A stretch of DNA of 64,000 nt. It comes from Escherichia coli (GTDB taxonomy: Bacteria; Pseudomonadota; Gammaproteobacteria; Enterobacterales; Enterobacteriaceae). The stretch lies in the NCBI RefSeq assembly GCF_041248615.1, contig NZ_CP158426.1; one strand, written 5' to 3'. A program made the translations under genes and the position numbers. The notes under the pieces were generated by a model that was not told the DNA's origin, made no database searches, and saw only the letters and a program-made list of their open reading frames with translations. Positions 38,753 to 43,191 of this stretch are shown here, piece by piece. Numbering within the stretch: the stretch's first letter is position 1; each line of letters starts with the position of its first letter.

Positions 38753-40003
38753 ATGGATATAATGAGAAGTGTTGTGGGGATGGTGGTGTTACTGGCAATA
38801 GCATTTCTGTTGTCAGTGAATAAAAAGAGCATCAGTTTGCGCACGGTTGGAGCCGCGCTGCTGCTACAAATCGCCATTGGCGGCATCATGCTCTATTTTC
38901 CACCAGGAAAATGGGCGGTAGAGCAGGCGGCATTAGGCGTTCATAAAGTGATGTCTTACAGTGATGCCGGTAGCGCCTTTATTTTTGGTTCATTGGTCGG
39001 GCCGAAAATGGATGTCCTGTTTGATGGCGCGGGCTTTATCTTCGCCTTTCGCGTACTCCCGGCGATTATCTTCGTCACTGCGCTCATCAGCCTGCTGTAC
39101 TACATTGGCGTGATGGGGCTGCTAATCCGCATTCTTGGCAGTATTTTTCAGAAAGCCCTCAACATCAGCAAAATCGAATCTTTTGTTGCGGTTACCACTA
39201 TTTTCCTCGGGCAAAATGAGATCCCGGCGATCGTAAAACCGTTTATCGATCGCATGAATCGCAACGAGCTATTTACGGCAATTTGTAGCGGGATGGCGTC
39301 CATTGCCGGTTCGATGATGATTGGTTATGCCGGAATGGGCGTACCAATTGACTACCTGTTAGCGGCATCGCTGATGGCGATCCCTGGTGGTATTTTGTTT
39401 GCACGTATTCTTAGCCCGGCCACCGAGCCTTCGCAGGTCACATTTGAAAATCTGTCGTTCAGCGAAACGCCGCCAAAAAGCTTTATCGAAGCGGCGGCGA
39501 GCGGTGCGATGACCGGGCTCAAAATCGCCGCTGGTGTAGCGACGGTGGTAATGGCGTTTGTCGCAATTATTGCGCTGATCAACGGCATTATCGGCGGAAT
39601 TGGCGGCTGGTTTGGTTTCGCCAATGCCTCTCTGGAAAGTATTTTTGGCTATGTGCTGGCACCGCTGGCGTGGATCATGGGTGTGGACTGGAGTGATGCC
39701 AACCTGGCGGGTAGCCTGATTGGGCAGAAACTGGCGATTAACGAATTCGTCGCTTACCTGAGTTTCTCCCCATACCTGCAAACGGGCGGCACGCTGGAAG
39801 CGAAAACCATTGCGATTATCTCCTTTGCGCTTTGTGGTTTTGCTAACTTTGGTTCTATCGGTGTTGTCGTTGGGGCATTTTCGGCTATTTCGCCAAAACG
39901 TGCTCCGGAAATCGCTCAGCTTGGTTTAAGGGCGCTGGCAGCAGCAACGCTTTCCAACCTGATGAGCGCGACCATTGCCGGGTTCTTTATTGGTTTAGCT
40001 TGA
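38753..40003 (+). CDS. psuT: NupC-family nucleoside transporter PsuT (YeiM)
   Basis: 416-aa polytopic ORF. Confidence 0.92.
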   Translation: MDIMRSVVGMVVLLAIAFLLSVNKKSISLRTVGAALLLQIAIGGIMLYFPPGKWAVEQAALGVHKVMSYSDAGSAFIFGSLVGPKMDVLFDGAGFIFAFRVLPAIIFVTALISLLYYIGVMGLLIRILGSIFQKALNISKIESFVAVTTIFLGQNEIPAIVKPFIDRMNRNELFTAICSGMASIAGSMMIGYAGMGVPIDYLLAASLMAIPGGILFARILSPATEPSQVTFENLSFSETPPKSFIEAAASGAMTGLKIAAGVATVVMAFVAIIALINGIIGGIGGWFGFANASLESIFGYVLAPLAWIMGVDWSDANLAGSLIGQKLAINEFVAYLSFSPYLQTGGTLEAKTIAIISFALCGFANFGSIGVVVGAFSAISPKRAPEIAQLGLRALAAATLSNLMSATIAGFFIGLA

Positions 40004-40071: not shown

Positions 40072-40731
40072 TTACTGCATCATCCCGGAGAATTTATTCT
40101 CCGGGTCCATCTCCAGCGCCAGTCCTGACAACTGCTTTCTGTTTTTAATTAGATATCCTTTCTTGCTTTTAATTAATAAACCGTCGTGAATGAATTGCGC
40201 GAGAACATATAAAAGATGTCGATAAGAAACGCCTAAATACTCTGCCGCTTGCGTATGCTTTTCGTGATAAAGATCACCTTCTTGTGAGAGTAATATAAAA
40301 GCTGCCAGGCGATTCACTAACGGAAATGATTGATTCTGAGTTAAAGAAACAATATTGCGATAATTTTTATGGCTTAAACTAACGCAGAGTTTTCGTAAAA
40401 ATAGTGTGTCGTTTAATAACAGCGGGCGGTAATGTTTCATAGGGAGCGCAAGACACCAACACTCTTCAATAGCCTGTACCGCACGCGGTTCATGGTCTTT
40501 ATCTATTAACTCAATCTCACCAATAAAACAGGGGGCGGCAAAGAAATCGATCAGCGACACGCGACCATTAGCTAGCGTGGCGTAAAGCCTGGCGCGGCCT
40601 CGCGTCAGGTAAAACAGCCAGGACGGCTGTTGCCCTTCCTGCACAATGTAGTCACGCGCTAAAAAATGAAACAACCGCGTATCGGCTGAAACATCCGTTG
40701 AAAAGCAATCCTTAAACGCGGATTCACTCAT
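40072..40731 (-). CDS. yeiL: CRP/FNR-family transcriptional regulator YeiL
   Basis: 219 aa from ATG at 40731 ([10 protein letters not shown]...); ORF extends 13 codons upstream. Confidence 0.88.
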
Positions 40732-40899
40732 CAATTGCTGCTTAAGATCATTATTGTGGATTTCTTTCACGATGTTTATCCGCTATGAGATTTCTCATAT
40801 TTAGCATACGTACGCTGTTGTTAAGATTCAATCATCGGCCCGGTCGAATTTTCTTTGCTGTAGAAAAAATAACGCAACTGGAAACAGAGGAAATAAACA

Positions 40900-41841
40900 A
40901 TGGAAAAGAGAAAAATTATTCTGGATTGTGATCCGGGTCATGATGATGCTATTGCCATAATGATGGCTGCGAAACATCCGGCGATTGATTTATTAGGTAT
41001 CACTATTGTGGCGGGTAATCAGACGCTTGATAAAACATTAATTAATGGCCTGAATGTTTGCCAGAAACTGGAGATTAATGTTCCGGTTTATGCGGGGATG
41101 CCGCAGCCAATTATGCGTAAACAAATCGTTGCCGATAATATTCACGGAGAAACCGGACTGGATGGCTCGGTATTCGAGCCACTGACCTGTAAAGCTGAAA
41201 GCACCCATGCGGTGAAATACATCATCGATACTCTGATGGCAAGCGATGGCGATATCACTCTGGTACCGGTTGGTCCGCTTTCAAACATCGCGGTGGCAAT
41301 GCGGATGCAGCCTGCAATTCTGCCGAAAATCCGTGAAATAGTGCTGATGGGCGGCGCTTACGGTACAGGTAACTTCACGCCGTCTGCCGAGTTCAACATC
41401 TTTGCCGACCCGGAAGCCGCACGCGTGGTGTTCACCTCCGGTGTTCCGTTGGTGATGATGGGCCTCGATCTCACCAACCAGACTGTTTGCACCCCGGACG
41501 TGATTGCTCGGATGGAAAGGGCAGGCGGCCCCGCCGGAGAGCTGTTCAGCGACATCATGAATTTCACTCTAAAAACGCAGTTCGAAAACTACGGCCTGGC
41601 TGGCGGCCCGGTGCATGACGCCACCTGCATCGGTTATCTGATTAACCCTGATGGCATTAAAACCCAGGAGATGTACGTCGAAGTGGACGTCAACAGTGGC
41701 CCTTGCTATGGGCGTACTGTCTGCGACGAGCTGGGCGTTCTTGGCAAGCCCGCTAATACCAAAGTCGGCATCACTATTGATACCGACTGGTTCTGGGGAT
41801 TAGTCGAAGAGTGCGTGCGCGGCTACATCAAAACCCATTAA
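40900..41841 (+). CDS. rihB: Pyrimidine-specific ribonucleoside hydrolase RihB
   Basis: 313 aa; N-terminal DCDPGHDD motif. Confidence 0.93.
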
Positions 41842-41940: not shown

Positions 41941-43191
41941 ATGGATGTCATGAGAAGTGTTCTGGGAATGGTGGTACTGCTGGCAATTGCATTTTTACTG
42001 TCAGTAAACAAGAAGAAGATCAGCCTGCGTACTGTCGGTGCGGCGCTGGTATTACAGGTCGTGATTGGCGGGATTATGCTTTGGTTACCGCCAGGGCGTT
42101 GGGTCGCAGAAAAAGTCGCTTTTGGCGTCCATAAAGTGATGGCGTACAGCGATGCAGGTAGCGCTTTTATCTTCGGTTCGCTGGTCGGGCCGAAAATGGA
42201 CACCTTATTTGATGGCGCAGGATTTATCTTTGGCTTCAGGGTATTACCGGCAATTATCTTCGTTACAGCACTGGTGAGTATTCTCTACTACATCGGTGTG
42301 ATGGGGATCTTAATTCGCATTCTCGGCGGTATATTCCAGAAAGCATTGAATATCAGCAAGATTGAGTCATTCGTCGCGGTCACTACCATTTTCCTCGGGC
42401 AAAACGAAATTCCGGCAATCGTCAAACCCTTTATCGATCGTCTGAATCGCAATGAATTATTTACAGCGATTTGTAGCGGGATGGCCTCGATTGCTGGTTC
42501 GACAATGATTGGTTACGCCGCACTGGGCGTGCCTGTGGAATATCTGCTGGCGGCATCGTTAATGGCGATCCCCGGCGGGATCTTGTTTGCCCGCCTGTTA
42601 AGCCCGGCTACGGAATCTTCGCAGGTTTCCTTTAATAACCTCTCTTTCACCGAAACACCGCCAAAAAGCATTATTGAAGCCGCCGCTACAGGGGCAATGA
42701 CCGGACTGAAAATCGCAGCAGGTGTGGCGACAGTGGTGATGGCATTTGTTGCAATAATTGCGTTGATTAACGGTATTATCGGCGGCGTTGGCGGCTGGTT
42801 TGGTTTTGAACATGCCTCGCTGGAGTCCATTTTAGGTTACCTGTTGGCCCCACTGGCGTGGGTGATGGGGGTTGACTGGAGTGATGCGAATCTTGCCGGA
42901 AGTTTGATTGGACAGAAGCTGGCAATAAATGAATTTGTCGCTTACCTCAATTTCTCACCTTATCTGCAAACAGCTGGCACTCTCGATGCTAAAACCGTGG
43001 CGATTATTTCCTTCGCGTTGTGCGGTTTCGCTAACTTTGGTTCTATCGGGGTGGTGGTTGGCGCATTTTCTGCGGTTGCGCCACACCGTGCACCGGAAAT
43101 CGCCCAGCTTGGTTTACGCGCGCTGGCGGCGGCGACACTTTCTAACCTGATGAGTGCCACCATTGCAGGATTCTTTATTGGCTTAGCGTAG
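41941..43191 (+). CDS. nupX: NupC-family nucleoside transporter NupX (paralog of psuT)
   Basis: 416-aa ORF, roughly 80% identical by eye to the psuT product. Confidence 0.92.
   Translation: MDVMRSVLGMVVLLAIAFLLSVNKKKISLRTVGAALVLQVVIGGIMLWLPPGRWVAEKVAFGVHKVMAYSDAGSAFIFGSLVGPKMDTLFDGAGFIFGFRVLPAIIFVTALVSILYYIGVMGILIRILGGIFQKALNISKIESFVAVTTIFLGQNEIPAIVKPFIDRLNRNELFTAICSGMASIAGSTMIGYAALGVPVEYLLAASLMAIPGGILFARLLSPATESSQVSFNNLSFTETPPKSIIEAAATGAMTGLKIAAGVATVVMAFVAIIALINGIIGGVGGWFGFEHASLESILGYLLAPLAWVMGVDWSDANLAGSLIGQKLAINEFVAYLNFSPYLQTAGTLDAKTVAIISFALCGFANFGSIGVVVGAFSAVAPHRAPEIAQLGLRALAAATLSNLMSATIAGFFIGLA

Follow-up and report, generated by a model that had tools for sequence, protein, structure and literature searches.

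Among the elements found in divergent promoter regions, operators of CRP/FNR-family regulators are a known kind. At promoters subject to class II activation by CRP and FNR the binding site is located near position -41.5 and a -35 hexamer is lacking, and an FNR site is also found at the start site of the fnr promoter itself. The CRP-family activator PrfA of Listeria recognizes a 14-bp palindrome, the PrfA box (TTAACA-N2-TGTTAA), which is usually centred at -41.5. The recognition helix of E. coli CRP reads S-R-E-T-V-G-R, and its DNA-contacting residues are numbered R180, E181 and R185. Transcription of the E. coli gene yeiL is reportedly RpoS-dependent, activated by Lrp and IHF and repressed by FNR, and the gene is said to be positively autoregulated from a start site nearer to the ATG annotated in K-12.

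In E. coli, YeiL is the third protein of the CRP/FNR family and is listed among only five Fe-S transcription factors of this bacterium; it is annotated as an activator in EcoCyc and RefSeq. RegulonDB assigns to it one regulated gene, one operon and one binding site, which is located upstream of yeiL. The yeiL promoter of Anjum, Green and Guest (2000) and of RegulonDB concerns the same gene and the same intergenic region as those studied here, and autoregulation by YeiL has already been proposed. For E. coli the divergent gene rihB has been described as physiologically silent (PMC2898832). YeiL is absent from a 2023 review of the Rih hydrolases.

Comparison of the yeiL-rihB palindrome with known operators

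The window, that is, the whole stretch of 64,000 nucleotides of E. coli DNA that was analysed, contains the gene order psuT (38753-40003, + strand), yeiL (- strand), rihB (40900-41841, + strand) and nupX (41941-43191, + strand). Between yeiL and rihB the sequence does not differ from that of K-12 MG1655, and window positions are converted to K-12 positions by subtracting them from 2296086. The features on which the comparison is based are the following.

40784..40799, no strand: palindrome, proposed YeiL box TATGAGATTTCTCATA (on the yeiL strand: TATGAGAAATCTCATA), 16 bp, centre at 40791.5
40072..40770, - strand: yeiL coding sequence with GTG start, 232 aa (open reading frame, conserved N-terminus, PGAP annotation)
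40900..41841, + strand: rihB, pyrimidine nucleoside hydrolase (PF01156), proposed target (annotation and Pfam)

A sequence-only reading of this DNA had noticed a 6-2-6 inverted repeat at 40785-40798. The 14-mer ATGAGATTTCTCAT is indeed found there, and the perfect repeat takes in a further base at either end, which makes it 7-2-7 (TATGAGA-TT-TCTCATA) at 40784-40799. That reading had also judged that the repeat does not fit CRP or FNR sites, which would have a wider spacing. This is wrong: read as TATGA-N6-TCATA the repeat has the geometry of a CRP site, and read as ATGAG-N4-CTCAT it has that of an FNR site. The TGA-N6-TCA spacing of CRP/FNR-family operators (here TATGA-GATTTC-TCATA at 40784-40799) was the same in all 79 loci that could be evaluated (see below).

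The palindrome shares with a CRP site (TGTGA-N6-TCACA) the identical spacing and, as predicted below, a class II placement at -41.5, and it matches the CRP core at 8 of 10 bases in E. coli and at 9 of 10 in the form present in Firmicutes (TATGA-N6-TCACA). It differs from a CRP site in that A stands in place of the G at position 2 of TGTGA, in every locus in the promoter-proximal half and in E. coli in both halves. A further difference is that the inner GA..TC bases, free in CRP sites, are invariant here, and the site is conserved in Firmicutes. With both replacements, and being absent from the Footprint-seq list mentioned below, the E. coli sequence does not qualify as a CRP site.

The likeness to the FNR box (TTGAT-N4-ATCAA) consists of a 14-16 bp inverted repeat with a TGA-N6-TCA core and a dimeric binder of the CRP/FNR family, binding by YeiL being a prediction. 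It extends to cysteines suited to an Fe-S cluster, to a site near -41.5 at activated promoters, and to a site that covers the start point of the regulator's own gene, activation and both start points being predictions in the case of YeiL. The half-site is nevertheless ATGAG and not TTGAT, so that ATGAG-N4-CTCAT scores only 6 of 10 against the FNR consensus and is not an E. coli FNR site; the FNR helix reads E-T-I-S-R where YeiL has Y-R-H-L-L-Y, and here a single site would serve two overlapping divergent promoters. A third parallel is PrfA: this CRP-family regulator has a short, near-perfect palindrome dedicated to it, which takes the place of the -35 box at its targets, and it has an autoregulatory role. 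Its box, however, has another sequence, and PrfA governs a multi-gene virulence regulon, in contrast to one site per yeiL locus.

Conservation of the palindrome

Perfect 7-2-7 repeats were present nine times in the 64-kb window, as compared to 4.7 +/- 2.0 in dinucleotide shuffles, and 10% of the shuffles of the 168-bp region contained a perfect repeat with 7-nt arms and a spacer of 0-6 nt. By itself the palindrome is statistically unremarkable in the window, and its significance rests on conservation.

A scan using one genome per species yielded 80 loci encoding YeiL relatives of 43-97% identity, from Enterobacterales, Enterococcus, Lactobacillaceae, Lachnospiraceae, Clostridium, Cohnella, Peribacillus, Sebaldella, Pelosinus and others, representing at least four phyla. 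The sequence T-ATGAGA-WW-TCTCA-Y-A was located directly upstream of the yeiL homologue in each of the 79 loci having upstream DNA, one of which (L056) carries a weaker copy. An exact site also adjoins the gene for a YeiL homologue that is only 32% identical. Hence the conservation in orthologous intergenic regions that the sequence-only reading had proposed as a check was observed in 79/79 evaluable loci, and its suggestion that some regulator has a site in this divergent promoter region is strongly supported by these comparative data. Since the loci share ancestry and the cassette can move horizontally, the 79 cases do not amount to 79 independent events.

Positions that had not been used in selecting the sites were near-invariant as well (T in 76/77, A in 77/77, T in 77/77 and A in 72/77), and the flanking intergenic DNA, promoter boxes excepted, was unalignable and not conserved. 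The central dinucleotide is AA, TT, AT or TA, and the site thus occurs in either orientation, which speaks for a site in DNA and against an RNA stem. Within the E. coli population the 44-nt stretch around the site was identical in 4712 of 5397 records; in the one variant record that was examined the change is at 40810, beyond the palindrome. A chance palindrome without function would agree with the unremarkable statistics within the window, but it is exceedingly improbable in view of the cross-phylum conservation at fixed spacing in 79/79 loci; a chance origin is ruled out by the comparative data only.

Each 8.6-kb locus contained one site, and no second site of at least 13 bits was detected in ~650 kb of yeiL loci or in the 64-kb window. 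A pattern search allowing three mismatches and a weight-matrix scan revealed no further copies of the box in the window, including the regions before psuT, psuG/psuK and nupX; in the weight-matrix scan the palindrome scored 28.9 bits and the next-best sequence 5.1 bits.

The association was also analysed in the reverse direction, by searching metagenomes for the exact 16-mer of the Firmicutes and sampling 80 matches. Nine of these were located within 200 nt upstream of a yeiL-like gene and had the same layout. The other 71 were not beside such a gene, 44 of them lying inside long reading frames, and those inspected were without the promoter layout. These non-yeiL matches are the background expected in a very large collection, and the 80 matches sampled revealed no extra members of a YeiL regulon. 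A site is therefore not predicted by the 16-mer alone, and the association goes from the gene to the site and not from the sequence alone. On one metagenome contig (L099, 537-574) two boxes are present in inverted orientation, 6 nt apart (TATGAGAAATCTCACA-tgtgtt-TGTGAGATTTCTCATA), beside a YeiL-like gene whose product is 46% identical.

The start codon of yeiL

According to the K-12 annotation yeiL starts at the ATG at 40731 (219 aa) and rihB at the ATG at 40900. Several observations are at odds with this yeiL start. YeiL homologues are usually called at a length of 232 aa, and the first 13 residues obtained when reading from the GTG at 40770 (MKEIxNxxLKQQL) are conserved from Escherichia to Enterococcus. 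At residue 14, where the K-12 model places the initiating Met, nearly all other genera have Ile or Leu, as do certain lineages of Escherichia. In addition, RefSeq/PGAP records place the start at GTG 40770, and in Firmicutes the longer yeiL start is preceded by a strong Shine-Dalgarno sequence (AGGAG). Because of the conserved N-terminus, the replacement of Met14 elsewhere, the PGAP start and the Firmicute Shine-Dalgarno sequence we took yeiL to be 40072-40770, and the K-12 model is probably 13 codons too short (window 40729-40770, - strand).

The 54 bp between repeat and yeiL and the 168-bp intergenic region given in the sequence-only reading depend on the K-12 start codon, which is probably mis-annotated. 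Both values hold for the K-12 model (ATG 40731) but not for the GTG start at 40770, with which the 16-mer ends 13 nt ahead of the start codon, in an intergenic region of 129 bp. Constructs based on the short yeiL model may have missed the conserved N-terminus or misplaced the promoter.

A promoter scan of E. coli alone gave as its only match a promoter-like sequence, TAAACA-17-AATAAT, at 40778-40750 (- strand), within the 232-aa frame and just upstream of Met14. Its AATAAT corresponds to an Asn-Asn codon pair, and among the Enterobacterales loci compared it is restricted to Escherichia, for which reason we set this sequence aside as the promoter of the family. It is possible that in E. coli it functions as an internal promoter giving a shorter YeiL isoform, and Met14 is rare outside Escherichia.

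Predicted promoters on the two strands

Comparison of the loci gave predicted promoter boxes on both strands.

40803..40808, - strand: predicted yeiL -10, TATGCT (in Firmicutes TATACT, TACAAT or TATAAT), from sigma70-like promoter comparison
40826..40831, - strand: predicted yeiL -35, TTGAAT, with a 17-nt spacer; TTG conserved, T at -32 in 74/77
40795..40796, - strand: predicted yeiL transcription start, G/A within the palindrome, from the position of the -10
40819..40827, + strand: predicted rihB extended -10, TGT-TAAGAT (hexamer 40822-40827), the best -10 on the divergent strand
40833..40834, + strand: predicted rihB transcription start, from -10 placement and sequence

On the yeiL strand the consensus reads TTGAAT-17 nt-TATACT-(3-5 nt)-ATGAGAAATCTCAT, and the -10 of the best sigma70-like promoter ends 3-5 nt ahead of ATGAG in 57/78 loci. 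Assuming the customary distance of 7 nt between -10 and start, transcription of yeiL is predicted to begin at about G3/A4 of ATGAGA; the palindrome would then cover roughly -3 to +13, centred on +5.5. In E. coli strain 12690 (NZ_CP074977.1; locus L083) a copy of ISVsa5, of the IS4 family, is inserted a few bases past the palindrome, at the equivalent of ~40807; it sits within the predicted yeiL -10 and splits the YeiL box from rihB.

On the rihB strand most Firmicutes have a perfect TATAAT as -10, Citrobacter and relatives have TATGAT, and Escherichia has a degenerate TAAGAT. The conserved ATTATA that follows the yeiL -35 on the yeiL strand is the TATAAT of the rihB strand. The predicted yeiL and rihB promoters overlap back to back, the yeiL -35 lying upon the rihB -10 and discriminator. 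Using the best -10, the centre of the palindrome is at -41.5/-42.5 of the predicted start of the divergent gene in 63/79 loci. At the corresponding -35 position the sequence is ATTTAG (40799-40804) or ATTCAG, matching a -35 hexamer at 1 of 6 bases, and the divergent promoter thus combines a recognizable -10 with an absent -35, as found at class II promoters. The start-site supplements of Ettwiller 2016 and Kim 2012 have no entry in this region.

The distances from the site to the promoter boxes are fixed on both strands and that to the start codon is variable, which connects the element with the initiation of transcription rather than with the ribosome-binding site. This bears on the view that the repeat acts as RNA, folding into a hairpin at the 5' terminus of the yeiL message (or in a transcript that is antisense or runs upstream of rihB) with an influence on stability or translation. 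The 16-mer can be folded as a 6-bp stem with a 4-nt loop (-4.4 kcal/mol), which beats all 200 shuffles, and it is positioned just upstream of the ribosome-binding site. However, the stem sequence is invariant, with no compensatory changes or covariation; a frequent T-to-C change at position 14 (32/77) breaks the outer pair on the yeiL strand, and the predicted yeiL start falls inside the left arm. With the variable start-codon and fixed promoter-box distances added, such a hairpin is very improbable. A structured RNA element was likewise rejected, since covariation was lacking and Rfam gave no match to the element near threshold.

YeiL as the most likely binder

YeiL contains a cNMP-binding-like domain (PF00027, 4e-14) and a Crp-type helix-turn-helix (PF13545, 3e-6). 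The segment GV(S/T)YRHLL(Y/F)V, which aligns to the S-R-E-T-V-S-R recognition helix of a CRP-family protein of solved structure, is invariant in 80/80 loci and also in the 32%-identical relative with the exact site. In YeiL, Tyr, Arg and Tyr (Y-R-x-x-x-Y) would stand for R180, E181 and R185 of CRP, which is in keeping with a site that has the geometry of the family and other specificity bases. Four cysteines (81, 104, 106 and 129) are also conserved, in agreement with the Fe-S character ascribed to YeiL.

The cognate regulator expected of a CRP/FNR-family operator is present, as yeiL adjoins the site in every locus. Because the site travels with yeiL across phyla and is invariant where the helix is invariant, YeiL is the most likely binder. 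The sequence-only reading had instead thought of another regulator, which is unlikely for the same reasons.

Binding by a different protein (CRP, FNR or some other) with YeiL uninvolved could be envisaged from the resemblance of TATGA-N6-TCATA to the CRP core (8/10) and from the effects of FNR, Lrp and IHF said to act on yeiL. We consider it improbable, given that the site is invariant beside yeiL homologues in Firmicutes, Fusobacteriota and Negativicutes, that YeiL is the only regulator seen with the site in every locus, and that the inner GA..TC is invariant though CRP does not need it. Moreover, the in-vitro CRP Footprint-seq table has a CRP site inside yeiL and none in the intergenic region (PMC12871828). 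The CRP site listed in that preprint, at K-12 position 2255813, is CGTGATAAAGATCACC at 40263-40278, within the yeiL coding sequence.

Genes divergent from yeiL

In about 50/80 loci, Firmicutes included, the gene divergent from yeiL is a rihB homologue (69-99% identity), which in Enterobacterales is followed by a nupX-type transporter gene. When E. coli is compared with Firmicutes, RihB is 69-86% identical (86% in Hungatella hathewayi) and YeiL 50-65% (loci L020, L024-L050 and others). These sequence comparisons make it clear that the yeiL-rihB cassette has crossed between phyla by horizontal transfer.

A distant clade of YeiL-like proteins (L051-L081) has retained the operator and the promoter layout, and there the divergent gene varies. 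The commonest partner encodes a class I SAM methyltransferase of ~210 aa (Methyltransf_11), and the others an NT5C-type nucleotidase, a DUF6198 membrane protein and a 394-aa protein without Pfam match; examples from this clade are L067 3239-3883, L073 3278-3853 and L075 3225-3911.

In the window, psuT (38753-40003) and nupX (41941-43191) are ~88%-identical paralogues in the same orientation that flank yeiL-rihB, and in many other Enterobacterales only the nupX/psuT-type copy downstream of rihB is present. This arrangement suggests a rihB-nupX operon with a later duplication or insertion.

Proposed regulation of yeiL and rihB

Considering all of the above, the palindrome is likely to be an operator of YeiL through which this protein would activate rihB in class II fashion and limit transcription of yeiL. 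We infer the identity of the binder, the start positions and the direction of each effect from sequence. A YeiL dimer would bind TATGAGA-WW-TCTCATA via its invariant helix (S/T)YRHLL(Y/F), and the single site would serve the two overlapping back-to-back promoters. Positioned at -41.5/-42.5 of the divergent promoter, with its good -10 and no -35, YeiL would switch on rihB as a class II activator; the class II layout is read from the good -10, the lack of a -35 and the centre at -41.5/-42.5. On about -3 to +13 of the yeiL promoter, YeiL would at the same time hinder its own transcription, and RNA polymerase recruited to the rihB promoter would cover the yeiL -35/-10 region. An activator-dependent promoter with a decayed -10 (TAAGAT) fits the silence of rihB in E. 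coli (PMC2898832).

The direction of these effects could be otherwise. In many loci the divergent promoter has a perfect -10 with G at -14, which could permit activator-independent transcription, and at a promoter working independently of an activator YeiL bound at -41.5 could repress instead of activate. YeiL could then be a pure repressor at its operator, keeping both promoters off, from its position over the -35 region of the divergent promoter and over the yeiL start, until a redox, Fe-S status or ligand signal releases it. The overlap of the site with the predicted yeiL start is in line with this, as are the perfect TATAAT boxes of many divergent promoters, which are often preceded by G or TG and might need no activator, and the silence of rihB in E. 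coli under laboratory conditions (PMC2898832). The tight placement at -41.5/-42.5 (63/79) together with the lack of a -35 hexamer is, however, the signature of class II activation, and YeiL is annotated as an activator in EcoCyc and RefSeq. We therefore regard pure repression as rather unlikely.

Activation of rihB combined with limitation of yeiL, the reading that we prefer, departs in two respects from what is said of the yeiL promoter. Autoregulation is reportedly positive, which conflicts with the autorepression predicted here, and the reported start is nearer to the K-12 ATG than in our model.

A wider reading, for which we see about as much reason to believe as to doubt, is that yeiL, its operator and the two promoters form a self-contained, horizontally mobile switch of ~60 bp. 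It would have been exchanged between Firmicutes and Enterobacterales along with the gene that it controls, which is rihB or, in other clades, the gene for a SAM methyltransferase, an NT5C nucleotidase or a DUF6198 membrane protein. Upon an Fe-S/redox or ligand signal, a single dimer would redirect transcription from yeiL towards the divergent gene. If this holds, the palindrome would be the first defined YeiL box and its divergent gene the first direct YeiL target, and the silence of rihB would be explained by its decayed -10 and its dependence on YeiL. In the literature searched, a search outside of which Anjum et al. (2000) and the RegulonDB site record fell, we found no description of a YeiL box sequence, its cross-phylum invariance, its -41.5 relation to rihB, a mobile yeiL-rihB cassette or the correction of the start codon.

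A precise operator provides a predicted direct target of YeiL, rihB and then nupX, and a clear, testable promoter model. The motif of the YeiL box can be used in genome scans to define the regulon, and the long-open question of the targets of YeiL becomes directly testable.

Other elements in the intergenic region

An FNR-like box, TTGAATCTTAACAA, is located at 40831-40818 (- strand), 19 bp from the palindrome, and matches TTGAT-N4-ATCAA at 8 of 10 positions. It shares bases with the predicted -35 of yeiL and with the predicted -10 of rihB, and could suit the FNR repression of yeiL that has reportedly been seen. Several Clostridia have an even better match to the FNR box at the same place, for example TTGAATTATATCAA.

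The predicted rihB leader opens, at 40835-40857 (+ strand), with a terminator-like hairpin (TCGGCCCGGTCGA) followed by ATTTTCTTTG, and a TTTTCTTTG run in this leader is conserved in most Enterobacterales. The hairpin and the run may constitute an attenuator or a pyrimidine-sensing tract.
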